Shown here: positions 3,789 to 17,261 of the stretch, piece after piece
Numbering within the stretch: position 1 is the stretch's first letter
How the letters are laid out: the number at the start of each line of letters is the position of its first letter
NCBI GenBank assembly: GCA_024276825.1
Contig: JAJRWI010000071.1
Coordinates: 1 to 54,734, forward strand
Origin: an archaeon
GTDB taxonomy: Archaea > Asgardarchaeota > Thorarchaeia > Thorarchaeales > Thorarchaeaceae
Reading direction: 5' to 3'
Length of the DNA stretch: 54,734 nt
Program-made: the position numbers and the translations under genes
Notes under the pieces: generated by a model
The model's database searches: none
What the model was told of the DNA's origin: nothing
The model's input: the letters and a program-made list of their open reading frames with translations, nothing else

Positions 3789-4715
3789 TTGCAATTGCGA
3801 AGACTTGGCTACTACCTTCTATTGATGGTAGGTATGCTTTTCTGGGGTGGTAGTTGGGTCTCGGGAGACATCATAGTCACTCTGTCGACTCCAATGATTA
3901 TTGGTTTCTTCAGGTTTCTTACTGCCAGCATGTTCTTTCTGCCTGTGCTACTTGTCAAAAACGGGCTCTCAAGGTCAGTATCCTTTGAGAAGGTGAAATA
4001 TTCCATCTTTCTCGGAATGACAGGAATATTTGGATATGGCATGTTCTTTCTTGTTGGAATGGGCTTTACCACTTCAGCTCAGGGTGCAATAATCGCAGGT
4101 ATGAATCCGATCACCGTCAGTCTTATCGCTCACATTGTTCATGGTGAGAGATTGAAAAAGCGCTGGCAGTATAGCGGATTCATCCTCAGCTTTGCAGGAG
4201 TTGTGTTGGTTGTTGGTGTGCAGGTCTTAATTGAATTCAGAATGGACTATCTGCTTGGTAATCTATTGATCCTGTGTGCTATGGGAACATGGGGCATTTA
4301 CTCGTCCATTGGAAAAGCTGCCATGAAGACAATGTCCTCGCTTGAAGCGACTGCAGGAGGCGTATTCACAGGCACATTGTTCTTTGGAATGGGGGCGCTT
4401 ATTGAAGGCCTTAATGGCGCAACACTCTCATTTGATCCACTCTTCTGGTTCAATATATTCTATCTGGGCTTCGCAGTGACATTCTTGGGATTCATGTTCT
4501 ATTTCATCGGCGTGAACAATCTTAATGCATCAAATGCAGCTGCGTTCATTAACTTCGTTCCAGTCTTTGGTGTCGCACTCTCAATTATAATCCTTCATGA
4601 AGTGATTCACTGGACATTCCTTGTGGGACTTATGCTGATTATTGGAGGGGTTTCCATAGTGAATGCATTCCCAAGCAGGGATACATCTAAAGAGAAGAGT
4701 AATGAACTAGAGTAG
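3789..4715 (+). CDS. DMT/EamA-family transporter
   Basis: About 10 TM segments, LFWGGSW, FFRFLTA, two EamA-like halves, FINFVPVFGV..ILHE. Confidence 0.9.
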   Translation: MQLRRLGYYLLLMVGMLFWGGSWVSGDIIVTLSTPMIIGFFRFLTASMFFLPVLLVKNGLSRSVSFEKVKYSIFLGMTGIFGYGMFFLVGMGFTTSAQGAIIAGMNPITVSLIAHIVHGERLKKRWQYSGFILSFAGVVLVVGVQVLIEFRMDYLLGNLLILCAMGTWGIYSSIGKAAMKTMSSLEATAGGVFTGTLFFGMGALIEGLNGATLSFDPLFWFNIFYLGFAVTFLGFMFYFIGVNNLNASNAAAFINFVPVFGVALSIIILHEVIHWTFLVGLMLIIGGVSIVNAFPSRDTSKEKSNELE

Positions 4716-4721
4716 AATGGC

Positions 4722-5240
4722 TCATACTTGGACTCTGAACTCTTCTTTTATCCTCTTGCTAACCTTCATCTTGTGAACTCGTACGACAGCTCGTATCTTG
4801 CCTATGCTGTTCACCACCTCATTTATCTCATCATCAGTAGCGCAGCAGAGGTGCACAAGAAGATCGAACTCCCCGTAAATCTGATGCACACATTTTACCC
4901 CTATGAGGTTTGCAATCTTCATACCCACAGCCTCAATGTCAGCATTTGGTTGAAGGTACACCATGAGCCAGATATGATCCTTGAAACCTATTTTCTCACA
5001 TGCCACAATCGCAGAGTAGCCCTGAATCACACCAATCTTCTCAAGCCTTCCCACACGTTTACTCACTGTGGCAACACTAATGCCCAACTTCTTAGCTATT
5101 TCATTAAATGAGGCTCTTCCATCATTCTGCAATTCCCACACTATTTTTAGATCAATCTCATCAAGATAGTCTATCTTCTTCAATATCTCTTCAATCTCTT
5201 CTTTGGACCTAAGGAATGGAAATTTCGTCTTCTGACTCAA
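4722..5240 (-). CDS. Lrp/AsnC-family transcriptional regulator (Cys-rich effector domain)
   Basis: LDEIDLKIVWELQNDGRASFNEIAKKLGISVATVSKRVGRLEKIGVIQGY HTH, followed by a RAM domain with GEFDLLV. Confidence 0.92.
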   Translation of the reverse strand: MSQKTKFPFLRSKEEIEEILKKIDYLDEIDLKIVWELQNDGRASFNEIAKKLGISVATVSKRVGRLEKIGVIQGYSAIVACEKIGFKDHIWLMVYLQPNADIEAVGMKIANLIGVKCVHQIYGEFDLLVHLCCATDDEINEVVNSIGKIRAVVRVHKMKVSKRIKEEFRVQV

Positions 5241-5307
5241 TTGTCAACACGTCCGATGAATACTTGTTTATTTTGTCCATTATAAATGAATGATTGTTTA
5301 CTTTTTA

Positions 5308-5351
5308 TTGCGAATCGCAAATGTTTATATACCCACCTATTGAATCGCAAA
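5308..5351 (+). promoter_or_regulatory. hdr-operon promoter with palindromic operator
   Basis: Palindrome TTGCGA-A-TCGCAA (5308-5320), TATA-like TTTATATA (5324-5331), and a second GAATCGCAAA copy at 5342-5351 (30 bp period). Confidence 0.6.
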
Positions 5352-5381
5352 GTTGCTCCAATCAGAGTTTGACGGAGCAAG

Positions 5382-5747
5382 GTGAAATCAATGTCGAAGA
5401 AGATTACACTCATTATAGCAACACCACCCTATGATAAGATAGGTGCCTTTACAGGTGCACGAATTGCTCTTACAGCCGCCATGGAAGACATAAACACTAC
5501 GGTTATCCTCATGGAGGACGGAGTGTATGCGGCTCTCGAGGGGCAAGAGTCCACACAGTTCTTCAAGACAGTCCAACTGCTTGAGGACTTCAAGGATGCT
5601 GGCGGAAGAATCCTTGTCTGTGGACTCTGTTTGAAGGAGAGAGGCATACCTCAAGATAAAGTAATTGATGGTATTGAAGTCATCGATATTCACAAGCTTG
5701 TCAGCACAATGGCTGAGAGCGATCAGACAGTATTCTTTGGTGCATAG
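5382..5747 (+). CDS. DsrE-family sulfurtransferase
   Basis: IATPPY, LMEDGVYAA, VCGLCLKERGI. Likely start is ATG 5391. Confidence 0.85.
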   Translation: MKSMSKKITLIIATPPYDKIGAFTGARIALTAAMEDINTTVILMEDGVYAALEGQESTQFFKTVQLLEDFKDAGGRILVCGLCLKERGIPQDKVIDGIEVIDIHKLVSTMAESDQTVFFGA

Positions 5748-5762
5748 GAGAGGGGTCTTCAA

Positions 5763-6296
5763 ATGTCAAGTAGCTCTTTTCCCAACCCTGTTAGGGTATT
5801 GCGTAGAGGAGAGCGCGATGAGGAAATCATCAAAGCACTCAAGAATGAGGGTTTTGATATCAATGCCTGTATGCAATGTGGGACTTGCACTGCTTCTTGT
5901 CTGTCAGGGAGATGGACCGCTCTCACTGTGAGAAAAGTGATGAGAAAAGCCGCTCTTGGAGACTCCAGTGTTCTGGAGAGTTCAGACATCTGGATGTGCA
6001 CCACCTGCTATAACTGCTATGACAGGTGTCCTCGAGACCTAAAGGTCACAGATGCCATAATCGTGCTCAGAAATCTTGCATCTGCTCGCGGGTTCATCCA
6101 TAAGAACCATCGCAAGGTGGTGCAGATTCTTGCAAAGACAGGGCATGCTGTGCCAATAAACGACAAGATACAGCAGGTCAGGAAAGAGCTGGGACTCCCA
6201 AAGATTCCGCCGACCCTTGCCAAATACCCTGAAGAGCGAGAGCTACTTGCCAAGACTCTATTCCAGCTCGCACCAGAGGAGGGGGATGAGCAATGA
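5763..6296 (+). CDS. hdrC: heterodisulfide reductase subunit C
   Basis: CMQCGTCTASC and WMCTTCYNCYDRCP 2x[4Fe-4S] motifs, TGHAVP. Confidence 0.92.
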   Translation: MSSSSFPNPVRVLRRGERDEEIIKALKNEGFDINACMQCGTCTASCLSGRWTALTVRKVMRKAALGDSSVLESSDIWMCTTCYNCYDRCPRDLKVTDAIIVLRNLASARGFIHKNHRKVVQILAKTGHAVPINDKIQQVRKELGLPKIPPTLAKYPEERELLAKTLFQLAPEEGDEQ

Positions 6297-7177
6297 ATAC
6301 CGGATACTCATTCTTTCTTGGGTGCATAATGCCCAATAGATATCCAGCTATTGAGTCAGCAACACGATTCGTCCTAGAAAGGCTTGGAATCAATGTTCAG
6401 GAGATGGAGCGTGCAGGTTGCTGTCCGGCTCCTGGAGTATTCAGATCATTCAATAAACCCGATTGGATGGTAGCGGCTGCAAGGAATATAGCCATTGCAG
6501 AAGCCAATGGTTCTCCCCTCCTCACTGTCTGCAACGGGTGCTTTGGAACATTATTTGATGTGAACCATGCTTTGAAGCATGATGAGGAACTAAGAAAGAA
6601 GGTTAATGAGAAACTTGAGAAACTGGGATACCATGTCAAAGCAGATGGAGAAGTCAGGCATATCGCACAGGTACTCGGCTTTGACATAGGGCCCTCAGGA
6701 ATTCAGCAATATCTGAAGAGGAAGGTGAAACTAAAGGCTGCAATCCATTATGGATGTCATTTTCTGCGTCCTTTTCATCTAAAGCAGATCGACGATCCTG
6801 AAGACCCCAGAATATTAGAGGACTATTTTGAAGCTCTTGGCGTTGAGAGTCTTAACTATCGTGGAAGACTACTCTGTTGCGGAGCAGGGGGTGGAGTCAA
6901 GGGAGCTCATGCTGAAGAGTCTATGAAAATGCTTCTGGAAAAGATGGAGGGAATTGCTGAAAGTGGGGCGGAAGCAATCCTAGACATATGTCCATTCTGC
7001 CACCTGCAGTTTGATGGCGGACAAAAGATTCTGAATGAAAAATACGGGACTGACTTCCATATCCCTGTGATCCATATCTCACAGTTAACTGCTTTCTGCA
7101 TGGGGGAGAACGAGATTGGAATGAAATACCAAGTCATCGCACCTGAGTTCAGGCTGGAGGTGAGAAACCCTGACTGA
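6293..7177 (+). CDS. hdrB: heterodisulfide reductase subunit B
   Basis: FLGCIMPNRYP, GCCPAPG, CNGC, HYGCH, CCGAGGG, CPFCHLQFD (two CCG domains, methanogen type). Confidence 0.95.
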   Translation: MNTGYSFFLGCIMPNRYPAIESATRFVLERLGINVQEMERAGCCPAPGVFRSFNKPDWMVAAARNIAIAEANGSPLLTVCNGCFGTLFDVNHALKHDEELRKKVNEKLEKLGYHVKADGEVRHIAQVLGFDIGPSGIQQYLKRKVKLKAAIHYGCHFLRPFHLKQIDDPEDPRILEDYFEALGVESLNYRGRLLCCGAGGGVKGAHAEESMKMLLEKMEGIAESGAEAILDICPFCHLQFDGGQKILNEKYGTDFHIPVIHISQLTAFCMGENEIGMKYQVIAPEFRLEVRNPD

Positions 7178-9146
7178 CAAAGAGAACGAAAGGCCTCGAA
7201 TCGGAGTGTTCGTCTGCCACTGTGGTGAGAACATAGCTGGCAAATTGGACGTGGAGGAAGTGGCAGAGTTTGCTGCAGGACTTCCGAATGTGGAGTTCTC
7301 CACCGATAATCTATTCATGTGTTCGAAACAGGGTGTGGAACTTCTTAAGGAAGCGGTTAGAAGGCATAAACTGAATCGAACTGTGGTAGCATCTTGTTCT
7401 GTTGAACAGCACTGGCCCACCTTTGCAAGAGCTGTCGAGGAAATGGGACTCAACCCACACATGCATGAGCAGGTCAACATTCGAGAGTGGGTGTCATGGG
7501 TTACGAATGATTGGGACAACGCCACTGAGAAAGCGAAAAGTGCGGTGGCAGCAGGAGTAAAAATGGCTGCTTTAAAAGAGCCCATAGAAACCCAAAAGCT
7601 CGATGTTGTGAAGAAGGTCATGGTTATTGGTGCAGGTGTTGCAGGTCTCAGGGCAGCAATGGACCTTGCAGAACTGGGCATACCTGTTGTCCTAGTTGAG
7701 AAGGAGCCATCAATTGGTGGCCACATGACCATGTTGAACAAGACCTTTCCAACTGACGAGTGTCCCATGTGTACATTGAGCCCTCTCCTAAATGGCGTTG
7801 CGAATCATCCTGACATAGAGATTCTGACATTGAGTGAGGTTTCAAAAGTGGAAGGGTCTGTTGGCAACTTTGTTGTGGAGGTTACCACCAAACCACGTTA
7901 TGTGCATGACAACTGCACCTCTTGTGGTCGTTGCTCAGAGGTGTGTCCTGTTGAGTTTCCCAATGAGTGGGACATGGGCTTTGGCATGAGAAAGGCAATC
8001 TATAAGCCATATCCTCAGGCAATACCTTCAACCTTCACAAGGGACAAGAAGCATTGCATAGAATGCGGGCTCTGCGAGATAGTATGTCCCGTGCAGGCAG
8101 TCGACTTCTCAATGAAGAAGGAAAAAAGGGAGTTCAATGTGGGAGCTATTGTAGTTGCCACAGGATACGAACAATATGACCCTGTGGAGATCACAGCTTA
8201 TCATTATGATCACCCCAACATCATTACTCAATTAGAACTAGAGAGGATGCTTGCTCCTACAACTCTAACAAAGGGGAAGATCCTCCGACCTTCCGATGGA
8301 AAAGTGCCGGAGTCGGTTGTAATCATTCAATGTGTAGGTTCTCGAAATGACCAAGTGGGCAATGCCTACTGTACTGGTGTTTGCTGCATGTACGCCCTGA
8401 AGAATGCAGGGATAATTAAGGAGCATCTTCCCAACACGGATGTTTACATATGTTACATTGACATAAGAGCACCAGGCCTTTACTATGAGGAGTACTACAA
8501 GAAGGCACAGGAAAAGGGGATAATATTCATCAGAGGACGTCCATCAAATATCGAGCCTGATCCATATGAAGAAAAGCTTACAGTGTTTGTTGAGGATACA
8601 TTCACAGGAGAACCCGTCGAGATTGAAGCGGACATGGTGATTCTGTCTGCAGGAATGATTGCACCCAAAGGCTTTGGAAAGCTCGGAGGAAAGCTGGGAC
8701 TTTTAAGGGCCAAAGAGGGATTCGCAAAGGAGTACCACATCAAGATGGGTCCAATGAGATCCAGTAGGGAGGGCGTCTTGCTTGCAGGCACAATTCAGGG
8801 GCCAAGGGATATAACAAAGACTGTTGCACATGCAGGAGCTGCAGCATCAGCAGCGGCACAGATACTTGTTAAGGGTTTTCTGGAGAAGCGTCTTGATACT
8901 GCAATCGTTGACAAAGACCTTTGCATCAAATGCCTTGCATGTTCGACTGTTTGCAATCCTGGTGCGATTGATGTTGATGTGGATGGATATGCCTTTGTCA
9001 ATGACACAGCGTGCAAGAGTTGTGGCACTTGTGCAGGTGCTTGTCCGACAGGGGCAATCCAGATCAGAAACTTCAGAGATGCACAATTGAAAGAAGAAGT
9101 CATAGGACTTCTCGAATACAACAGACTGGTGGGTGCTGCACAATGA
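7170..9146 (+). CDS. hdrA: heterodisulfide reductase subunit A (probable CTG start)
   Basis: RIGVFVCHCG, GAGVAG FAD motif, KTFPTDEC, inserted and C-terminal ferredoxin motifs, LELERM, QCVGSR, CCMYALK. The frame is closed upstream by TGA at 7161; SD GGAGGTGA 7156-7163 lies 6 nt before CTG 7170. Confidence 0.93.
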   Translation: MTDKENERPRIGVFVCHCGENIAGKLDVEEVAEFAAGLPNVEFSTDNLFMCSKQGVELLKEAVRRHKLNRTVVASCSVEQHWPTFARAVEEMGLNPHMHEQVNIREWVSWVTNDWDNATEKAKSAVAAGVKMAALKEPIETQKLDVVKKVMVIGAGVAGLRAAMDLAELGIPVVLVEKEPSIGGHMTMLNKTFPTDECPMCTLSPLLNGVANHPDIEILTLSEVSKVEGSVGNFVVEVTTKPRYVHDNCTSCGRCSEVCPVEFPNEWDMGFGMRKAIYKPYPQAIPSTFTRDKKHCIECGLCEIVCPVQAVDFSMKKEKREFNVGAIVVATGYEQYDPVEITAYHYDHPNIITQLELERMLAPTTLTKGKILRPSDGKVPESVVIIQCVGSRNDQVGNAYCTGVCCMYALKNAGIIKEHLPNTDVYICYIDIRAPGLYYEEYYKKAQEKGIIFIRGRPSNIEPDPYEEKLTVFVEDTFTGEPVEIEADMVILSAGMIAPKGFGKLGGKLGLLRAKEGFAKEYHIKMGPMRSSREGVLLAGTIQGPRDITKTVAHAGAAASAAAQILVKGFLEKRLDTAIVDKDLCIKCLACSTVCNPGAIDVDVDGYAFVNDTACKSCGTCAGACPTGAIQIRNFRDAQLKEEVIGLLEYNRLVGAAQ

Positions 9147-9538
9147 TAATTGCATTTGCTTGCGAAAACTGCGCACAGGGCTCTGCAAACACAGCAGGCG
9201 TGCTGAGAATGAAATATGATCATCGCATCAAAATTGTAAGAGTGCCATGTGCTGGGAGAGTCGGTCCCAGACAGATAATAGAGGCTCTGAATAATGGTGC
9301 AGACTCTGTAGCGATCATTGGTTGTTGCTTTGGTGCCTGTCATTACAATGATGGCAACCTGATCACTCTTCGAAGGGTCAAGGCAATGAAGAGGATGTTC
9401 GAGGAGCTTGGCTTTGATCCTGACATGGTGAATATGTACACTGCAAGAGCTGCTGAAGGCGACACTATTGTTGGTGATTTTGAAGATATGAGTGCCAAGA
9501 CAGATGCTATGTTGAGTAAGGAGGTTTCAAATGAATGA
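9143..9538 (+). CDS. mvhD: MvhD/FlpD-family [2Fe-2S] subunit
   Basis: IIAFACENC, RVPCAGRV, GCCFGACHY..GN. ATG 9143 overlaps the hdrA stop (ATGA). Confidence 0.9.
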   Translation: MIIAFACENCAQGSANTAGVLRMKYDHRIKIVRVPCAGRVGPRQIIEALNNGADSVAIIGCCFGACHYNDGNLITLRRVKAMKRMFEELGFDPDMVNMYTARAAEGDTIVGDFEDMSAKTDAMLSKEVSNE

Positions 9539-10794
9539 GTAAAATGAAGGTCCTTGTCAGGCAACTCAATGGCTGCAACCGGTGTGCTTGGCATCTACTG
9601 GCACTCGAGAGTTTTGATAGCATTTCACTTATCGGACACAGTCTGTTAGGAAATAATGATAACAATGAGAGAGTAGATGCAGTGATCCTCACTGGATTTG
9701 CAACCCGCAAAGACAGGGAGATGCTAGAAGGTTTCAGAGATAGGGCCGATCTAATTGCTTTATTCGGTACTTGTCCCTATACGGGTGGCATTTTTGGGCT
9801 TGCAAATCAACGTGGAGCATCAGTTCTCCCTGTTGAAGACCTTATTAAAGTAGACATGAATATCGCAGGGTGTCCACCAGGCGTTGGCACTTTAATCGAA
9901 ACACTCACGAAAGGCACTTCAACATTAATGAGCCCTCTCTGTTCGACCTGTAACCGAGAGTTTCAAAAGCAGTATCTCAAAGAGATTATCCATACTCCCT
10001 CATGGGATGATTCCACCACCTGTTTCAACAATCAAGGCCTTCCTTGTAGTGGTGTGGTTTCTGCTGAATGTGCTCAACGTTGCATAGACTTCAACACACC
10101 CTGTAGAGGATGTGTACCTAATGTCAATGATTCTGGACCTGGAGCTTTGGGATACTTCACCTCTCTGGCAGGACAGATGGATGTTGATACAAAGGCTACT
10201 GAATGGACTACTGATATGCTTGGGGACAAGCCCGATGAGATCACGAAAGGAATTCCTGATGTTGTTGGCACATTCTTTAGATATACATTAGCTCACGATT
10301 TTAAGAGAGCAGGGAGATTACCAACAACAGGTGGCCTTTGTTCAGACATAATGACGGGACGTTTGATTCAGGAGGCCCCTCAGATTGCTGCAACAATATA
10401 TGGTTCTCGGGGAATCTCGGTGGCATTGACTCTGATTGAGGCATATGAAAATGCAATTGGAGTGGAGCCATCGGAAAAGACAAGAGAGATACGCAGTGAA
10501 TTGAGAAAGATTCAGGCAACATGGACTAAATTGGAGAGAAAGCCCGATAGTAAGCGCTTTGCAGAAATTGTCAAGGCGCTCAAGACCTTTGCAGGAAATG
10601 AGGTGCTCTCCAATGTTTACTTTTCAGGATTCAAGGTTCCACTAAAGGATGTCGAATACACATTCGATGCATATTCCATCAGAGAGATTGATTGGAAGGC
10701 CGCATCAGGATATGCTGAAGATGAAAACTGTAAGGTCAGCATAACTGTAGATGATAGAGGGATAATTAGGGAGTGGTCTTGTGAGCTTCGATGA
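9535..10794 (+). CDS. MvhG-like hydrogenase small-subunit homolog with C-terminal extension resembling a degenerate large subunit
   Basis: GCNRC, GTCPYTGGI, GCPP, CSTC, CFNNQGLPCSG...CIDFNTPCRGC, DVVGTFFRY. The extension GRLIQEAPQIAATIYGSR...AYENAIGVEP resembles the large-subunit L1 region without its Cys ligands. Confidence 0.75.
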   Translation: MSKMKVLVRQLNGCNRCAWHLLALESFDSISLIGHSLLGNNDNNERVDAVILTGFATRKDREMLEGFRDRADLIALFGTCPYTGGIFGLANQRGASVLPVEDLIKVDMNIAGCPPGVGTLIETLTKGTSTLMSPLCSTCNREFQKQYLKEIIHTPSWDDSTTCFNNQGLPCSGVVSAECAQRCIDFNTPCRGCVPNVNDSGPGALGYFTSLAGQMDVDTKATEWTTDMLGDKPDEITKGIPDVVGTFFRYTLAHDFKRAGRLPTTGGLCSDIMTGRLIQEAPQIAATIYGSRGISVALTLIEAYENAIGVEPSEKTREIRSELRKIQATWTKLERKPDSKRFAEIVKALKTFAGNEVLSNVYFSGFKVPLKDVEYTFDAYSIREIDWKAASGYAEDENCKVSITVDDRGIIREWSCELR

Positions 10795-11824
10795 ACTAAA
10801 TGCACATGTGATAGATGCAGGACTATGCGAGGGTTGTGGGCTCTGTGTGGGTGCCTGCAAAGCAATAACCATAGAAGAAGGAGTTCCGCAACTTACAGGG
10901 AGATGTGTCCTGAAATCAGGTGCAAATGAGTGCGGACTCTGCTTCGAATTATGTCCACAGGCACATCCTGAAACCATTCAGGAAGATGTGATTGATAGTG
11001 TCATTACTGCTGTCTCGGTGAGGACCAAGGATAAGACAATTGCAGAAAAAACATCAAATGGTGGATTCGTAACCACTCTTTTCAAATATCTTCTTGAAAA
11101 AAGCAAGGTAAATGCAATTGTCGCAACAACGGGCGAGAAATACGCACCCCAAGGAACTGTTATCGATGACCTAAAGGAGCTTGATGAAACCATTGGCACC
11201 AGGTATTCTGAGTCTGGCGTAATGATAAGTCTCTTTGATGCAATTCGCAAACACAGGAGTAGAGTTGCAGTGGTTGGACTCCCTTGCGAACTTCGTGGTG
11301 TGTCCAGACTGGAACAGCGTATTAGTACAAATGTCATCAAGATTGGACTGTTTTGCACAAACAATCAGAGGGTTGATAAGAACGGAAAAAAGGTCAAGAT
11401 GAGCTCATGTGAGCACTGTACCGATTTCATAGCGACTCATGCTGACATTTCTGCTGGATTTGCAGGCAGTCAAAAAGGATTCACCTCGGTCATTGCTCTG
11501 ACTAACAAGGGCAATGAACTCTTGAATGAGTTGTTAAATGCTGAACTCTTTGAAACCGCAGAGGTCAGTTTTGACAAGATCAAAGCCGCACAAGCACGCA
11601 AGTTGAAGCGTGAAGCAGCTGAGATCACGCCCTCCCTGAGGGAGCGTGTTTTTGAGGAACTGAAACAATCAGGTCCTCTTGAAATAAAGACCTTGGCAGC
11701 GAGGCTCAACGCCCCATCTGATAAGGTCTTATATCATGTGCTTGTCCTTCAAGATCTTGGCAATGTGATACCTGTTGAGGACAAGCAGGACCCATATTCA
11801 ATATCATGGCAAGCAATCATGTAA
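10781..11824 (+). CDS. FrhB/FdhB-family (F420-interacting beta subunit-like) protein with N-terminal ferredoxin and C-terminal wHTH-like tail
   Basis: CEGCGLCVGAC, CGLCFELCP, NGGFVT, GTRY, VGLPCE, IGLFC, CEHCTDF, ADISAG. Confidence 0.8.
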   Translation: MSFDELNAHVIDAGLCEGCGLCVGACKAITIEEGVPQLTGRCVLKSGANECGLCFELCPQAHPETIQEDVIDSVITAVSVRTKDKTIAEKTSNGGFVTTLFKYLLEKSKVNAIVATTGEKYAPQGTVIDDLKELDETIGTRYSESGVMISLFDAIRKHRSRVAVVGLPCELRGVSRLEQRISTNVIKIGLFCTNNQRVDKNGKKVKMSSCEHCTDFIATHADISAGFAGSQKGFTSVIALTNKGNELLNELLNAELFETAEVSFDKIKAAQARKLKREAAEITPSLRERVFEELKQSGPLEIKTLAARLNAPSDKVLYHVLVLQDLGNVIPVEDKQDPYSISWQAIM

Positions 11825-11839
11825 AAGGAGTGAAAGAAA

Positions 11840-12073
11840 ATGGATTATGATGAAGAACTCGATGTACGTGGACAAGTATGTCCTTATCCAGCACTTAGAA
11901 CCAAAAAGGCTCTCATGAAGATGGCACCTGGTAAGGTCTTGAGAGTACTCATTGATCATCCACCTGCTGTTGACTCTGTTCAGCGGGAGATTGCAAAGAC
12001 CAAGAATGAGTTTCTTGGTGTTGAGGAAGAGGATGATGATGAGTGGGCGTTATACTTCAGGTGCGTGAAGTAG
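11840..12073 (+). CDS. tusA: TusA/SirA-family sulfur carrier
   Basis: LDVRGQVCPYP motif, 77 aa. Confidence 0.92.
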   Translation: MDYDEELDVRGQVCPYPALRTKKALMKMAPGKVLRVLIDHPPAVDSVQREIAKTKNEFLGVEEEDDDEWALYFRCVK

Positions 12074-12083
12074 GCGAGAGACC

Positions 12084-12452
12084 TTGGCAAAACTTGCATT
12101 TGTGGTTCAGACGGAGCCCTACAAGTTCGAGGCAATTGATACTATGTTGAATATGATTGATGCAGCTAAGAGGGCAGGACACGAGATACTCGGAGTGTTC
12201 TTTTTTGGCTCTGGTGTCTATTCATTGCAGAAGCACATAGATCCTGGAGTCACCGTACGAAACCTCATTGAGAAGATCAAAGAAAAAGTCGCTTCTGAAG
12301 GGGTCACCCTCATTGGCTGCACTACATGGATGTCAATGGATGGGATCTGCAATGAGAATAGAATGGAAGGTGTCAAGGTTGAAGGTCTCGGTGCACTGAC
12401 CGAGATTGCTGTTAAAGCAGACAAGCTGATTGTCTTTGGTCCTGGAGTGTGA
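12084..12452 (+). CDS. dsrE: DsrE/TusD-like protein
   Basis: QTEPY, GVFFFGSGVY, Cys in IGCTTW, EGLGALTEI..ADKLIVF. Confidence 0.78.
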   Translation: MAKLAFVVQTEPYKFEAIDTMLNMIDAAKRAGHEILGVFFFGSGVYSLQKHIDPGVTVRNLIEKIKEKVASEGVTLIGCTTWMSMDGICNENRMEGVKVEGLGALTEIAVKADKLIVFGPGV

Positions 12453-12823
12453 TGGCAATGAAATCAATTCTAATATGTTGCGATAAATCACCTCATGGAA
12501 CCAATATAACAGCGGAAGCTCTCAGGATTGCCTCGGGATTTCTGGGCCTTGGACCAACAATTGACTGCAAGATTGTATTTGATGAGGATGCAGTGTATTT
12601 CCTTGTCAAGAACACTAATACTGGTGGTCTTAAAGTAGATCCGCTCACTGAACCCCTAGAACTCCTCGATTTGGTGGATGCAGAGATCTTTGTGATTGAG
12701 AGAGCATTGAAAGAACGCGGTCTTACCAGAGAAGACTTGATCGACTACTCAAATCTGAACATCATTACAACAGCAGAGTTAGCTCGCATTGTCATGGGGG
12801 TTTCTACAGCATTTCACATGTGA
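12449..12823 (+). CDS. dsrF: DsrF/TusC-like protein
   Basis: KSPHGT...EALRIASG, FDEDAVYFL, ALKERGL. Confidence 0.78.
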   Translation: MMAMKSILICCDKSPHGTNITAEALRIASGFLGLGPTIDCKIVFDEDAVYFLVKNTNTGGLKVDPLTEPLELLDLVDAEIFVIERALKERGLTREDLIDYSNLNIITTAELARIVMGVSTAFHM

Positions 12824-12839
12824 TGCAGGAGGTACTACA

Positions 12840-13175
12840 ATGAAACTTGACCTGCTCTATCTATTTGGGTTTAGTCCGAGAATAACTGATAGACTCAACA
12901 AACTTCAGGGGTTCATATCTCATCAAATAAAGGCTGGAAAGACCGTGGGCATTGCATTTCTCCATGATGGTGTTGTCGGAGCTGGTCCAGGTGGCAGTTG
13001 TCCTGACTCGGTCATTGGCATACTCAAGAATGGAGTTAGGATCTTTGCCTTGGGACCTGACCTCGATGCAAGGGGTTTCAAAGACAAACAGTTGGAGAAA
13101 GGAATTCAGAGAATCAATTATGATGAGCTGATGCAACTCATTGTTGATTCAACTACTCTATGTTCATGGATGTGA
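12840..13175 (+). CDS. dsrH: DsrH/TusB-like protein
   Basis: FLHDGVV, ALGPDLDARG, INYDELMQLIV..W. ATG 12840 follows SD GGAGGT. Confidence 0.75.
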   Translation: MKLDLLYLFGFSPRITDRLNKLQGFISHQIKAGKTVGIAFLHDGVVGAGPGGSCPDSVIGILKNGVRIFALGPDLDARGFKDKQLEKGIQRINYDELMQLIVDSTTLCSWM

Positions 13176-13227
13176 AAGAATGACTTATAGGGAATATCAA
13201 GGATTCTATACAAGTTAGATAATTAGG

Positions 13228-13644
13228 GTGGACAAAATGACTGAGAAAATCTATGTTATCAGTTGCAGCCAAGATCTGGCTGGAATGGGGATTGATAGAA
13301 TGCGAAAGTCTGTTGAGGGACTTGAAGAGGCAGAAATCGCATTAGACTGGAGCAGGGTGCGTATTGTTCCTGTTATAGCCGCAGAAAAGACTGCATTTCA
13401 AGAGAATGAAACACACATTGTTCAGATCAAACCAATCAAGATCCCTGCTTATGCCATTGTCTTCCAATCATTTTATGGAGTCAATGGAATGGGACACCTG
13501 TTTTGCATTGGAGCTCTAACTTTCAAGAGATATGATGAGGAGAGGGAGGCTCATGTTGCAATGTTTCAGTCGAGAATAAGAGCCTCAGTACTACCAGGTG
13601 ACCTCCTTGGTCAAGTCCTGATAGTACCAGCGAAACGCACATGA
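13228..13644 (+). CDS. DUF22-like archaeal protein
   Basis: PVIAAEK...IKPIKIP...GHL...VLPGDLLGQVLIVP pattern resembles archaeal DUF22. Confidence 0.55.
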   Translation: MDKMTEKIYVISCSQDLAGMGIDRMRKSVEGLEEAEIALDWSRVRIVPVIAAEKTAFQENETHIVQIKPIKIPAYAIVFQSFYGVNGMGHLFCIGALTFKRYDEEREAHVAMFQSRIRASVLPGDLLGQVLIVPAKRT

Positions 13645-13646
13645 CA

Positions 13647-13946
13647 TCATGCTGTTATGACTTTGTCATATTGTTCCATAATCAGATCGACCATTCCTGA
13701 ATAGTCGACCAACTCAGCGGGAATGACCAATCGGTCAGAAATCCCGCGCTCCTCAATATGATCTTTTAATGCATAGACCTTTACTGCGAGGTCTTTCAAT
13801 TCTGCTGAGTGTGGACAACCCTTATCTAGAAGGTATGTCCCATCCTGAACTAATAGCAGCGCTATTTCTTGATTCGCCTTTTTTAGAGACTCGGTTATCT
13901 CTCTAAGGGTTTCACATTCATGAGATAGCCAGATTAGATACTTCAT
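13647..13946 (-). CDS. dsrH: DsrH/TusB-like protein (second copy)
   Basis: LLLVQDGTY, VYALKDHIEERGI, VDYSGMVDLI. Confidence 0.82.
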   Translation of the reverse strand: MKYLIWLSHECETLREITESLKKANQEIALLLVQDGTYLLDKGCPHSAELKDLAVKVYALKDHIEERGISDRLVIPAELVDYSGMVDLIMEQYDKVITA

Positions 13947-13957
13947 TTCATATCCTC

Positions 13958-14317
13958 CTAAAATGTAATTACGACCTCATTTTCAATAAAGGCCTTAGCA
14001 ATTCCATTTTCATCTAGAATTTCTACACCTTCAAAGATCTCGTCGTCAGAGATACCTCGTTCCTCCAGAGACCTCTTGCTAACTGTTATCCGTCCATCAA
14101 AACTCTCGTATGTGGATTTGAACATCATAATGGGCTTTGCGTCCATGTTCTTCAGTAGAGCATACACGCCATCACCCATGAACAACATCTGCGGCTCATG
14201 GTCCATTCCAATCATGCCAACTGCTGCACGCCAACCCTCAAAGTTGATAATCTTTCCAAACGGTCTGCTTCGAATAAGAACCAATACTTTTCGCTCTGTA
14301 AACTCCATTATCATCAC
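13958..14317 (-). CDS. dsrF: DsrF/TusC-like protein (second copy)
   Basis: RSRPFG..EGWRAAVG, FMGDGVYAL, SLEERGI. Confidence 0.82.
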   Translation of the reverse strand: MMIMEFTERKVLVLIRSRPFGKIINFEGWRAAVGMIGMDHEPQMLFMGDGVYALLKNMDAKPIMMFKSTYESFDGRITVSKRSLEERGISDDEIFEGVEILDENGIAKAFIENEVVITF

Positions 14318-14683
14318 CTATAATGAGAATGTTATGAATCTGTCAACCTCACCAATAATCTCTGCAAACTCTGTGAGTCCCGAAACCTCTACAACATCGA
14401 CGAAGTCAGAACCAGTTTGATCAAAGCCGCGAGCAGCGGTGCATAGGCCACAGGCTTGGAATTCAGCACCGAGATCAGCCAGTTCTTGTAAACGTTGGTT
14501 CATTGGCACATCAGGGTCTGGTTCCTGATCCAGCTTTGCATTGTTGACTCCATCTACAAACAGAAAGATCTTGACTCCATACCCCTTCTCGAGAGCAGTC
14601 CTTGCCAATTCGTATAAGGTATGGCTGTTTTGGTATGTATATGGAGATGATAGTAAAAGAAATCCTAATATTTTCTTCTCCAT
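14318..14683 (-). CDS. dsrE: DsrE/TusD-like protein (second triad)
   Basis: SSPY, IFLFVDGV, ACGLCTAARG, SGLTEFAEII. Confidence 0.85.
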   Translation of the reverse strand: MEKKILGFLLLSSPYTYQNSHTLYELARTALEKGYGVKIFLFVDGVNNAKLDQEPDPDVPMNQRLQELADLGAEFQACGLCTAARGFDQTGSDFVDVVEVSGLTEFAEIIGEVDRFITFSL

Positions 14684-14852
14684 GATTGTTTCACCGTAGA
14701 TATTTCAGCAAAACAAGGGGATTAAAAATTTGTCCAAATGGATAATTCAAGTGTACACAATCGAACACTAATTGGAATTAAAGTCTATCTTCTGAAACTT
14801 CCCCGAGGTCATGCTTGTACGACCTTGAGCATATCATGTTATGATGTTTATG

Positions 14853-15083
14853 CTAGCTGATCTTTTCCATCTGAACATTGAGTATTGCATCACAATATTG
14901 ACACATAATACTTGTAGGCCCAGCCCATTTGAGATTGTTTCCATCTATTGCAGCTCCGCAGTTGTCGCATTTTTGTGGAATACGTGGGATTAGCAATGTG
15001 GGACTTGTGCTGATTGATGATGATCTCCTGTCAGTCTTCTTTCTTTTCTTTGCTTTTTTTATTATCCTTGTTCCGCAGCCCAT
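14853..15083 (-). CDS. small Zn-ribbon protein (start uncertain)
   Basis: CDNCGA...CQYCD with a basic N-terminus. The longer ORF call overlaps copB and its promoter. Confidence 0.45.
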   Translation of the reverse strand: MGCGTRIIKKAKKRKKTDRRSSSISTSPTLLIPRIPQKCDNCGAAIDGNNLKWAGPTSIMCQYCDAILNVQMEKIS

Positions 15084-15133
15084 TATCTTCGCCTGATTGT
15101 TGATTTTCGCACCAGACTTGGTGTCAATGTAGA

Positions 15134-15179
15134 ATAGGTACAAAACAATACCTATAAATATATCGATGTAGATATATTT
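15134..15179. promoter_or_regulatory. tandem palindromes upstream of copB, candidate operator
   Basis: ATAGGTA-N8-TACCTAT (15134-15155) and AAATATATC-N6-GATATATTT (15156-15179). Confidence 0.4.
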
Positions 15180-15254
15180 TTTAAGATAGAACGGGTGAGA
15201 TACGCAAGACTCTGTCATAGTGCATTCATAATCGTTCATCGGGTGTGTGGTAAA

Positions 15255-17261
15255 ATGGAGCACAAGCACGATCACAAAGCAATGGGCCATGAGGACAAGA
15301 AGATAAGTCATCATGAGATGATGGCACTGGACTTCAAAAAGAGGTTCATAATATCGATGATTCTCACGCCCCCAGTGGTACTTCTCTCACCGCTGGTGAG
15401 AACTTTACTAGGACTTGATTTTCTATCATTCCCTGGAGACCTATTTGTACTCTTTGGGATTTCCACTATGGTATATATCTATGGCGGCTATCCATTTCTC
15501 AAAGGCCTTGTTAAAGAAGTAAGAAAACGAAATCTTGGAATGATGACATTAATCGGTGTAGCCATCTCGATTGCATATTTCTACAGTGCAGCGGTTGTAT
15601 TTGGACTTGAAGGCTCGATGTTTTTCTGGGAGCTAGTGACACTAATTGATATTATGCTGGTCGGTCATTGGATTGAAATGCGATCTGTAATGGGTGCATC
15701 ACGTGCACTAGAAGCACTTGTTAAACTACTACCAACAACAGCGCATCTACTGATTGATGATGATGGTACTACAAAGGAAGTTCCCACTTCAGAACTGAAA
15801 AAGGGTGACCTTGTTCTAATCAAGCCTGGTGAGAGAATCCCTTCTGATGGTGTTATTGTCAGAGGACAGACAAGTATGGATGAGTCAATGATAACAGGCG
15901 AGTCAAAGCCCGTTGAGAAGGGTCCAGGTGACATAGTAATTGGCGGGGCCATCAATGGCGATGGTAGTACAGTTGTGAAGATTACCAAGACTGGCAGCGA
16001 AACCTATCTTGCTCAAGTGATTGATCTAGTAAAAGAGGCTCAAGAGAGTCGGTCAAGAACACAGGATCTTGCTAATCGTGCTGCGTTCATATTGACTATC
16101 ATTGCACTTGTTGCAGGCTCTCTCACACTGAGCATATGGCTGACTGTAGGTCAAAACCTGCAGTTTGGAATTGAGCGCGCTGTCACTGTCATGGTCATCA
16201 CCTGTCCTCATGCATTAGGTCTTGCAGTTCCTCTGGTTGTTTCAGTATCAACATCGATATCGGCTCAGAATGGCTTGCTTGTGCGTGATAGAGCAGCCTT
16301 TGAACGTGCCCGCAACCTGCAGGCTATTGTGTTTGATAAGACAGGCACACTCACAGAGGGAAAATTCTCGGTTGTAGATGTTGTCACTTTTGGAAGCCTT
16401 AATGAAACCGATGTGCTAAGCTTTGCTGCGTCCATTGAAACCAATTCGGAACATCCGATTGCACAAGGAATTGTTCGTGGTGCTAAGGAGCGTAATGTCA
16501 AGATAAAGCAGGTGTCGAAGTTTAAGGCAATTCCAGGGAAAGGAGCATCAGGAGAGGTTGAAGGAAGACGAGTGTTGGTCGTTAGTCCAGGATATCTCAA
16601 GGAGCATGGAATGTTGCCCTCTAGCGAGAAGCTTGATGAATTGTCCCAGAAGGGACACACAGTTGTTTACGTTCTTATTGACGATAAGCTTGTAGGAGCC
16701 TTGGCTCTTGCTGATGTAATTAGATCAGAGTCTAAAGTCGCAATTTCAAGGCTTAAAGAGATGGGAATAAAATGCATGATGTTGACGGGTGATAATCGGC
16801 ATGTTGCTCAATGGGTCGCTGAAGAACTTGACCTTGATGACTATTTTGCTGAAGTTCTCCCCCATGAAAAATCAGAAAAGATCAAGGAGATACAAGCACG
16901 CGGCCTAATAGTTGCAATGGTTGGAGATGGAGTGAATGATGCCCCAGCTCTCGCTCAAGCTGATATCGGAATCGCGATCGGTGCTGGGACTGATGTGGCC
17001 ATTGAAACTGCGGATATCATTTTGGTCAAGAATGATCCCAACGATGCAGTGGCAATACTTGGCCTTTCCAAGGCAACATATACTAAGATGGTTCAAAACT
17101 TGCTATGGGCCACAGGATATAATGCAGCTGCAATACCTCTTGCAGCGGGAGTATTGTATTCATTCGGAATACTACTTAGTCCTGCAATGGGAGCAGTGCT
17201 TATGTCTCTGAGTACGGTCATTGTAGCAATAAATGCGCGACTTCTCAAGTTCAAGGAGTAG
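15255..17261 (+). CDS. copB: copper-exporting P1B-type ATPase (CPH type)
   Basis: His-rich N-terminus, TGES, ITCPHALGLA, DKTGT, SEHP, GDGVNDAP, YN and MSLS motifs. Confidence 0.93.
   Translation: MEHKHDHKAMGHEDKKISHHEMMALDFKKRFIISMILTPPVVLLSPLVRTLLGLDFLSFPGDLFVLFGISTMVYIYGGYPFLKGLVKEVRKRNLGMMTLIGVAISIAYFYSAAVVFGLEGSMFFWELVTLIDIMLVGHWIEMRSVMGASRALEALVKLLPTTAHLLIDDDGTTKEVPTSELKKGDLVLIKPGERIPSDGVIVRGQTSMDESMITGESKPVEKGPGDIVIGGAINGDGSTVVKITKTGSETYLAQVIDLVKEAQESRSRTQDLANRAAFILTIIALVAGSLTLSIWLTVGQNLQFGIERAVTVMVITCPHALGLAVPLVVSVSTSISAQNGLLVRDRAAFERARNLQAIVFDKTGTLTEGKFSVVDVVTFGSLNETDVLSFAASIETNSEHPIAQGIVRGAKERNVKIKQVSKFKAIPGKGASGEVEGRRVLVVSPGYLKEHGMLPSSEKLDELSQKGHTVVYVLIDDKLVGALALADVIRSESKVAISRLKEMGIKCMMLTGDNRHVAQWVAEELDLDDYFAEVLPHEKSEKIKEIQARGLIVAMVGDGVNDAPALAQADIGIAIGAGTDVAIETADIILVKNDPNDAVAILGLSKATYTKMVQNLLWATGYNAAAIPLAAGVLYSFGILLSPAMGAVLMSLSTVIVAINARLLKFKE

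Follow-up and report, generated by a model that had tools for sequence, protein, structure and literature searches.

Positions 5382-14683 of a 54,734-nucleotide (nt) stretch of DNA from a Thorarchaeaceae archaeon (Asgardarchaeota; assembly GCA_024276825.1, contig JAJRWI010000071.1, positions 1 to 54,734 of the forward strand; hereafter, the window) contain an operon that, with about even confidence on our part, encodes a soluble flavin-based electron-bifurcating HdrABC, equipped with a dead hydrogenase arm and using carrier-supplied sulfane sulfur as its S-S substrate. The architectural part of this model is strong. It is built on the gene content, the domain architecture, the loss of the nickel site, the conservation of iron-sulfur and carrier cysteines, the synteny, and the distribution, all directly observed, and from these we infer how the complex assembles, what its donor and substrate are, and in which direction it runs. 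The genes lie on the plus strand between 5382 and 13644, in the Pfam-based order dsrE-hdrC-hdrB-hdrA-mvhD-mvhG*-frhB-like-tusA-dsrE-dsrF-dsrH-DUF22, and, since neighboring genes overlap by 4-14 nt or sit 10-52 nt apart, they were regarded as a single operon; a second dsrEFH triad on the minus strand is convergent with it. Genes were called from a listing of open reading frames (ORFs) and from Pfam scans of the 18 ORFs located at 3789-15314, i.e., the cluster and its immediate neighbors. The list and order of genes that an initial annotation of this DNA had given across 5382-14683 held in this analysis, and so did its counts of one TusA, three DsrE, two DsrF, and two DsrH proteins.

The Hdr core and the hydrogenase-derived arm

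The bifurcating flavoprotein HdrA (7170-9146, plus strand, with an uncertain start codon and an ORF called from GTG 7206) has a FAD domain and four Fer4 stretches. Its residues 10-651 aligned to residues 3-651 of the methanogen chain 9sfi_A with 674 bits, a second methanogen chain, 5odc_A, gave 654 bits, and the N-terminal, FAD, inserted ferredoxin, and C-terminal ferredoxin domains were all present. In contrast, the sHdrA structure 6tjr matched only the flavin core (residues 327-565, 134 bits). This is in agreement with the initial annotation, which had placed the protein within the full-length bifurcating methanogen type rather than the sHdr type, and the LELERM and CCMYALK segments it had pointed to were seen in the translation. 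The catalytic subunit HdrB (6293-7177, plus strand) has two CCG domains, the sites of the non-cubane clusters (PF02754 in two stretches, 119 bits), and gave 293-314 bits against four of the five solved methanogen HdrB chains (the best being 8rvv_B, with 314) and 241 bits against 7bkb_B. The CCG cysteines are all invariant among orthologues (alignment A2). The 2x[4Fe-4S] subunit HdrC (5763-6296, plus strand) is an HdrC-type dicluster ferredoxin, recognized by Fer4 dicluster matches, with eight invariant cysteines arranged in two four-cysteine motifs (alignment A3), and the [2Fe-2S] connector to HdrA, MvhD/FlpD (9143-9538, plus strand), matched PF02662 with 128 bits at residues 46-165 of a long ORF (9011-9538); its start is most likely the ATG at 9143, which overlaps the hdrA stop. 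The genome, an assembly of 2.94 Mb that is 98.3% complete, encodes about nine HdrA paralogues and at least eight HdrB/C paralogues, and the window HdrA, HdrB, and HdrC are only 32-45% identical to these, lower than to the methanogen enzymes.

The product of mvhG* (9535-10794, plus strand), here called MvhGx, is a protein of 419 amino acids (aa) with an Oxidored_q6 (hydrogenase small subunit) domain, in which an MvhG-type small subunit (aa 1-260) is fused to a 155-aa remnant of a hydrogenase large subunit (aa 265-419). Residues 5-256 aligned with MvhG (phmmer, 1e-15), and the small-subunit part has 12 conserved cysteines (alignment A1), enough for three [4Fe-4S] clusters. In the AlphaFold model (pLDDT 75, both end domains around 90), residues 2-260 matched small subunits (5odc_E, Z 16.7) and residues 265-419 matched large subunits (FrhA 6qgt_A, Z 14.5, root-mean-square deviation 2.5 Å, 154 residues aligned; 4kl8_L, Z 14.0), while NuoD-type chains gave Z about 11.6 with the C-terminal part. 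When compared by BLASTP with the genome's own MvhA, the stub aligned to the L1 region with an E value of 2e-4, and the sequence R-I-C-G-I-C was replaced by A-T-I-Y-G-S; hhalign against the genome's own MvhA paralogues gave a probability of 90.7% and an E value of 1.3e-6 over 103 columns. Foldseek with the whole MvhGx model listed small subunits only, and the large-subunit likeness came from BLASTP, hhalign, and the separate structure comparison; a phmmer search of the extension against PDB sequences gave nothing meaningful. The C-terminal 155 residues are well conserved within the family. In a profile search of 1.84 billion representatives, the 21 proteins found at E ≤ 1e-30 were all MvhGx family members or fragments of them, and none of the best 150 matches carried the extension outside this family. 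The nickel motifs RxCGxC and DPCxxC were not found in MvhGx, and the stub has no invariant cysteine in alignment A1. Judging from these alignments, the hydrogenase arm appears to be dead, a nickel-free wire descended from MvhAGD whose stub lacks the Ni-binding cysteine pair.

A still functional hydrogenase, with MvhGx pairing in trans with an intact large subunit encoded elsewhere, was also considered. The four proximal-cluster cysteines are kept in MvhGx, and [NiFe] large-subunit family matches were found on contigs C2, C15, C24, and C80 of the genome. However, the fused stub has the fold of the large subunit and fills its position, the large-subunit genes examined on C15 and C24 each adjoin a small-subunit gene of their own, and an FrhB-type input is encoded directly 3' of MvhGx in every locus tallied, which together make this pairing extremely unlikely.

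Sulfur carriers and conservation of the cluster

DsrE_a (5382-5747, plus strand; PF02635, 70 bits), a DsrE-family sulfur carrier encoded directly 5' of hdrC, contains the motif C-G-[LM]-C-x-K-E-R-G, which is invariant among orthologues. Directly 3' of the frhB-like gene, TusA (11840-12073, plus strand; PF01206, 78 bits) belongs to a distinct, operon-specific subfamily that is 55-94% identical across lineages; Cys14 of its C-P-x-P motif is invariant, and the C-terminal Cys75 is not conserved. The same strand then encodes DsrE_b (12084-12452; Pfam DsrE), DsrF_b (12449-12823; Pfam DsrE/F), and DsrH_b (12840-13175; Pfam DsrH), the last one with an ORF called from 12789 and a most likely start at ATG 12840. 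Cys79 of DsrE_b, within G-C-[TS]-T-W, is invariant, and no invariant cysteine was found in DsrF or DsrH; three adjacent E, F, and H genes with the active cysteine in the E subunit correspond to a DsrEFH/TusBCD-like layout. The convergent triad on the minus strand is composed of DsrE_c (14318-14683), DsrF_c (13958-14317), and DsrH_c (13647-13946), also identified with Pfam. Triad b scored below the NCBIfam cut-offs for TusD, TusC, and TusB (46 vs 89, 40 vs 94, and 38 vs 49 bits, respectively), and DsrH_c was the sole triad member to pass, with 59.8 bits against the TusB/DsrH cut-off of 49.2, suggesting that both triads are distant TusBCD/DsrEFH relatives. The CxxC of DsrE_a raised the idea of a two-cysteine, DsrC-like carrier substrate, which was rejected as not general because the Loki-type protein at the same position, DrsE_2, has a single cysteine, itself invariant.

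The cluster accounts for five of the six genes of the DsrE family in this genome. Three TusA genes were found: one in the operon, another in a tusA-iscS-iscU set, which covers housekeeping sulfur separately, and the third in a module composed of dsrE, a gene for a small polytopic membrane protein (131-134 aa), tusA, and a PAS histidine kinase gene (contig C67:6083-9072, L126). The same module stands directly beside the Hdr cluster in a Thorarchaeota relative (L017:13682-16747), and may serve the Hdr-carrier system in sensing or uptake.

Synteny was assessed by scanning one genome per species, which gave 56 loci, all from Asgard archaea; the counts below use the assessable loci. In all, 56 Asgard species have kept the module, among them Promethearchaeum syntrophicum MK-D1, Candidatus (Ca.) Harpocratesius, and Ca. 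Sigynarchaeum, and it is also carried by L. ossiferum; with the same order recurring in 56 species-level genomes, the arrangement is far beyond chance. A DsrE-type gene was present within 1.3 kb upstream of hdrC in all 37 assessable loci, tusA followed frhB within 600 bp in 45 of 50, and a DsrEFH triad was found in 28 of the 30 loci with enough flank. Loki-type loci have the order Lrp<>tusA-dsrE-dsrF-dsrH-drsE2-hdrCBA-mvhD-mvhGx-frhB::gltD-tusA and Thor-type loci the order Lrp<>dsrE-hdrCBA-mvhD-mvhGx-frhB-tusA(-dsrEFH); the second convergent triad was also observed in some Loki-type loci (L059, L089, L095). In addition, a 263-kb metagenome contig (L019) carries dsrE-dsrE-hdrCBA-mvhD-mvhGx-frhB-tusA, and its class-I lysyl-tRNA synthetase is 93% identical to that of Methermicoccus shengliensis. 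The genome pattern scan missed Methermicoccus, and the Asgard-only result is therefore a limit of that scan. The prediction, fixed beforehand in the initial annotation, that the sulfur-carrier genes stay next to hdr in relatives was borne out across Thor-type and Loki-type Asgard archaea and Methermicoccus.

In a maximum-likelihood tree of HdrB, the cluster orthologues formed one clade (100/98), apart from seven same-genome paralogues; within it, the Methermicoccus sequence was sister to all Asgard cluster HdrBs (99/98), and the Thor and Loki branches were separate. This suggests that the module, carriers included, is old and was inherited together. The closest matches of the window MvhGx and HdrB were from Thorarchaeota. 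Full-length MvhGx was found in about 85 of 400 Asgard genomes and is common in a large Loki-type family; in the window's own family, it was detected in 7 of 86 genomes and was absent from both same-genus genomes (86-88% complete), a patchiness that points to losses on several occasions or to a recent transfer among Thor-type lineages. In MK-D1 (L115 / L063, NZ_CP042905.2, ~652-672 kb), a second hdrABC set is divergent across the carrier cassette, so that two Hdr operons flank one set of tusA-dsrEF(H)-drsE2 genes.

Selenium was weighed as the cargo of these carriers, with a relay that would turn selenotrisulfide or perselenide into selenide for SelD in selenoprotein-rich archaea. The best NCBIfam match of the operon TusA was the YedF N-domain ('selenium metabolism protein', 42 bits, versus 24 bits for TusA), and DsrE_a weakly matched the YedF C-domain, all these scores being below the cut-offs. 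The SelD gene of the genome (contig C81:22492-23322, minus strand) has one in-frame TGA, i.e., it is the selenocysteine form, and such a SelD is present in most genomes of the family, indicating that the lineage uses selenoproteins. However, SelD was found in 84 of the 86 family genomes, as compared with the seven that have full-length MvhGx, and selenium use is therefore independent of the cluster. The YedF matches are sub-threshold and, moreover, HdrA has a cysteine where the alignment prints an X for methanogen 9sfi_A, an unusual residue that we take to be selenocysteine. We thus consider the selenium relay very improbable.

Electron input, substrate, and direction

The short-form FrhB-like flavo-iron-sulfur protein (10781-11824, plus strand; PF04422/PF04432, FrhB_N and FrhB_C) contains an N-terminal 2x[4Fe-4S] region, FrhB_N, the four FrhB-cluster cysteines, a truncated FrhB_C, and a C-terminal winged helix. 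Among solved structures, it came nearest to 8rja_E and 8riu_B, two chains that bear the title 'Coenzyme F420 hydrogenase/dehydrogenase, beta subunit C terminus', and to 7npa, an F420-dependent sulfite reductase that it resembles in the FrhB-like half. The loop between the second and third cluster cysteines has 14 aa in the window protein and its Thor-type relatives (alignment A5), about 50 aa in the Methermicoccus form, which has a normal FrhB_C, and about 475 aa in the Loki form, where the insert is a GltD/NfnB-like Fer4_20 + Pyr_redox_2 module of the NAD(P)H type. Across the 56 loci, 52 have the GltD form and four the short form seen in the window. Compared in this way, the loop appears to act as a socket for swapping donors, with a swappable input module.

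The winged helix of the FrhB-like protein (HTH_24-like, the C-terminal ~75 aa, ~11600-11824) recurs in each of the three lineage types, invariably with tusA directly behind it, and its candidate roles are docking of TusA, docking of MvhGx, and DNA binding. In Ca. Harpocratesius repetitus (L062:9065-9493), the FrhB-like protein has 142 aa, with a ferredoxin domain and the winged helix, and is followed by tusA; it represents either a minimal variant that occurs naturally or a gene that has decayed.

The initial annotation had suggested F420H2 as a possible input of this complex, a suggestion that found no support in the genome search. CofH (TIGR03551) and CofD (PF01933) had no match in the genome; F420 biosynthesis therefore looks absent, and F420H2 is unlikely as the donor here. 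In addition, the window FrhB-like protein is devoid of the ~50-aa loop, and 52 of the 56 relatives have the NAD(P)H-type GltD module at that place. Three CofE-like genes (F420 ligase family) were found on contigs C63:68252, C67:1978, and C41:8718, which, with no CofH or CofD beside them, suggest deazaflavin salvage or a different ligase role, and F420 salvage is possible.

The genome also gave no match to McrA (PF02249) or ComA (PF02679), an alternative route to coenzyme M (CoM) not having been searched for, nor to sulfite reductase (NIR_SIR) or DsrC/TusE (PF04358), the cognate acceptor of DsrEFH/TusBCD. The host is therefore not a methanogen, as had been stated before. Among the genes that the initial annotation had reported missing from the window, intact mvhA and dsrAB are indeed missing, with no [NiFe] large subunit on the window contig and no NIR_SIR match in the genome. 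The statement on the lipoate-binding protein holds for the 18 scanned ORFs, where no GCV_H (lipoate-binding) domain was found, LbpA not having been searched for in the rest of the window or the genome.

In DsrK/DsrC and sHdr, the sulfur on which CCG-domain proteins act is bound to a protein. In our working model, electrons would enter via the FrhB-like protein and pass to the three [4Fe-4S] clusters of MvhGx, the fused large-subunit stub serving as a scaffold only, and from there the donor arm would feed HdrABC through MvhD. One electron would then go uphill to ferredoxin through the HdrA ferredoxin domains, and the other would reach HdrB by way of HdrC, where the two non-cubane clusters of HdrB would cleave the S-S bond. 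The sulfane sulfur would be delivered either still bound to the carrier as a persulfide or in the form of a small per- or polysulfide to which the carrier persulfide gives rise, and would leave as H2S; zero-valent sulfur would be the high-potential acceptor that lets a mid-potential donor, probably NAD(P)H in most relatives, reduce ferredoxin. Neither Mcr nor the ComA route to coenzyme M is present in this genome, and the operon consistently encodes TusA, a DsrE-type protein, and usually DsrEFH, whose catalytic cysteines are conserved. For these reasons, sulfane sulfur passed on by the carriers is the most likely S-S substrate. A precedent for a dead catalytic subunit, an FrhB-type input, and MvhD feeding HdrABC is Elp-Hdr, characterized by biochemistry and cryo-EM, where the Mvh donor arm gives way to an FdhA that is truncated and without cofactor, together with a subunit of the FdhB/FrhB type and a homologue of MvhD (Nomura et al. 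2025, PMC12350162).

The earlier claim that the substrate of HdrB is a protein persulfide on TusA or DsrE thus gained support from the invariant carrier cysteines and the conserved synteny, and its second half, a direct action of HdrB on the carrier, would be conjectural, with neither a DsrC-like nor a lipoate arm at hand. Several observations weigh against carrier-borne sulfur as the substrate. The link between HdrB and the carriers is deduced from the genes; the HdrB site is buried in the methanogen enzyme, and known CCG protein substrates use a flexible arm (the DsrC tail, the LbpA lipoate), with no DsrC/TusE match in the genome and no GCV_H domain in the cluster. The short FrhB form has no GltD module, CofH and CofD had no match in its genome, and no YeeE/TsuA-type sulfur importer was matched there either. 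By our own estimate, an NAD(P)H-driven bifurcation would call for a somewhat higher potential than that of the persulfide/H2S couple, unless sulfide is kept low. A complex prediction of HdrB, HdrC, and TusA (A2, A3, A4) gave a score of 0.00 with the controls not run, and counts neither for nor against binding.

A further objection is that HdrB is about 55% identical to genuine reductases of CoM-S-S-CoB, the disulfide of CoM and coenzyme B (CoB), so that a small-molecule disulfide stays plausible as the substrate. HdrB would then reduce a small (hetero)disulfide, CoM-S-S-CoB in Methermicoccus and a thiol pair in Asgard archaea, and the carriers would have a side function, such as cofactor sulfur supply, repair, or regulation. 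The scores of 293-314 bits and the missing arm-bearing protein substrate (no DsrC/TusE match) point the same way. In M. shengliensis, which has CoM and CoB, the same module, HdrC2B2A2-MvhD-FrhG-FrhB1, was named FrhBG-HdrA2B2C2 and read, as a putative and not purified complex, as a ferredoxin-dependent F420:CoM-S-S-CoB oxidoreductase (Kurth et al. 2021, PMC8630106). Nevertheless, the window genome has no McrA or ComA match, the carriers remain attached in all three lineages, even with a swapped input module, and Methermicoccus already has HdrA1B1C1 and HdrDE for CoM-S-S-CoB (PMC8630106). The matching M. shengliensis block indicates that the carriers stay with this Hdr subtype even in a methanogen having other CoM-S-S-CoB Hdr enzymes. 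On balance, a small disulfide as the substrate is unlikely.

As for the direction, the complex could run in reverse, oxidizing sulfide or a thiol at HdrB together with reduced ferredoxin and loading the TusA/DsrE persulfide for biosynthesis or sulfur oxidation. We consider this quite improbable, since HdrA is not of the short sHdr type, no LbpA is encoded in the cluster (no GCV_H domain in the scanned ORFs), the genome has no sulfite reductase or DsrC match, and biosynthetic persulfide has its own tusA-iscS-iscU set. It is true, however, that most of what is known of TusA and DsrE relays comes from oxidative pathways (PMC11094781), that Imachi et al. (2020) treat the Asgard Mvh-Hdr as electron-confurcating, and that the formation of NAD(P)H from reduced ferredoxin and sulfide is energetically favorable by our own estimate. 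Returning to the reductive model, we only tentatively propose, and with less than even confidence, its most specific form, in which HdrB directly reduces carrier-delivered sulfane sulfur and both Asgard archaea and Methermicoccus run a sulfur-dependent bifurcation that would let NAD(P)H, or some other donor of mid potential, reduce ferredoxin.

The cluster had initially been presented as a new system, which overstates the case. The hdr-mvhD-mvhG-frhB block of MK-D1 was listed in the gene table of Imachi et al. (2020), with flanking SirA/TusA, TusD, TusC, TusB, COG2210, and Lrp genes transcribed at 182-348 reads per kilobase per million mapped reads and with no sulfur link drawn; the Methermicoccus FrhBG-HdrA2B2C2 was described by Kurth et al. 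(2021), and persulfides bound to TusA/DsrE have already been proposed as Hdr substrates in a 2025 preprint. We found no paper describing the fusion of MvhG to an MvhA stub, a donor-socket role of the FrhB loop, or the conserved carrier tie, and none on an Asgard HdrABC with TusA and sulfur; for DsrE/TusA of Lokiarchaeota, the only paper found dealt with selenium and was unrelated.

Many organisms other than methanogens have HdrABC, and its substrate in them is a long-standing question, and the roles of the Asgard Hdr paralogues have been guessed. Carrier-borne sulfur is a testable candidate substrate, a hypothesis pointed to by the genes themselves, and the presence of the module in two cultured Asgard strains (MK-D1 and L. 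ossiferum) and in a cultured methanogen brings it within reach of the bench. With Elp as the first, the arm would be a second and independent example of a catalytic metallo-subunit that has decayed to a wire with the bifurcating core kept, and a single FrhB loop would serve for donor swapping. If HdrB does directly reduce carrier-delivered sulfane sulfur, the long-missing 'heterodisulfide' of Hdr in non-methanogens would be identified, and hydrogen-sulfur syntrophy models of eukaryogenesis would gain a biochemical basis.

Neighboring genes and known systems

Divergent from the operon, an Lrp/AsnC-family regulator (4722-5240, minus strand; HTH_24 + AsnC_trans_reg) was found, and Thor-type and Loki-type relatives alike often have an Lrp homologue next to the cluster. 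The last operon gene encodes a DUF22 protein (13228-13644, plus strand; PF01629, 29 bits), with no homologue in the 20 related loci examined, and is outside the conserved core. Upstream of the second dsrEFH triad and on the same strand, a 153-aa ORF (14853-15314, minus strand) has an N-terminal hydrophobic stretch and a CxxC...CxxC zinc-ribbon-like C-terminal end, with no Pfam match. Regarding the hdrA start, the frame opens at 7164, after TGA 7161, and the conserved N-terminal cysteine motif has already begun upstream of GTG 7206. Translation must thus start further upstream and, with no ATG, GTG, or TTG preceding the motif in this frame (7156-7208), at a non-canonical codon, for example CTG 7170. 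The sequence GGAGGTGA stands 6 nt ahead of this candidate start. The orthologue of the Thorarchaeota relative (L017) has a normal ATG, 11 codons ahead of the R-I-G-V-F-V-C-H-C-G motif.

MvhAGD-HdrABC of hydrogenotrophic methanogens (5ODC, 9SW2, 9SFI) shares full-length homology with the window HdrA, HdrB, HdrC, MvhD, and MvhG part, all of which keep every cluster cysteine, and has the same hdrCBA-mvhD-mvhG order. The differences are that MvhA is reduced here to a 155-aa nickel-free stub on MvhG, that an FrhB-like input is added and sulfur-carrier genes are attached, and that the window host has no Mcr or ComA match. Of the traits of group 3c MvhAGD, the three-cluster small subunit and MvhD are present, but the nickel-binding large subunit is not.

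In FlxABCD-HdrABC and in DsrMK/DsrC of sulfate reducers, the reduction of a sulfur-carrier protein by a CCG-domain subunit is established or proposed, and NADH is the donor in Flx-Hdr. Unlike the window genome, which gave no DsrC/TusE match, these systems use DsrC with a two-cysteine arm, and their input modules are not homologous in arrangement. Flx-Hdr was mentioned for Asgard archaea by Imachi et al. The sHdr-LbpA system with TusA/DsrE3 is likewise an Hdr-like complex genetically tied to TusA and DsrE-family sulfur transferases (PMC6067878, PMC11094781). However, sHdrA is short and non-bifurcating, and the layout there is hdrC1B1A-hyp-C2B2 plus LbpA, whereas the window cluster has a long HdrA, a single hdrCB pair, and no GCV_H domain.

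FrhBG-HdrA2B2C2 of Methermicoccus is a homologous module with the order HdrC2-B2-A2-MvhD-FrhG-FrhB1, and the Methermicoccus-like contig L019 encodes, in addition, a member of the MvhGx family, has two dsrE genes ahead of the module and tusA behind it, and has an HdrB that is sister to the Asgard clade. It differs in its methanogen host, in an FrhB1 with a complete FrhB_C, and in its published assignment to F420H2 and CoM-S-S-CoB, the carriers being undiscussed in the main text. Elp-Hdr (ElpABC-HdrABC) of Methanothermobacter marburgensis, in turn, has a remnant that derives from the formate dehydrogenase FdhA instead of a hydrogenase large subunit, and it uses F420H2 and CoM-S-S-CoB, whereas the window genome has no CofH or CofD match and co-encodes the carriers. 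Nonetheless, both share a dead remnant that would act as a wire, a donor site of the FrhB/FdhB family, an MvhD connector, and a bifurcating HdrABC core.

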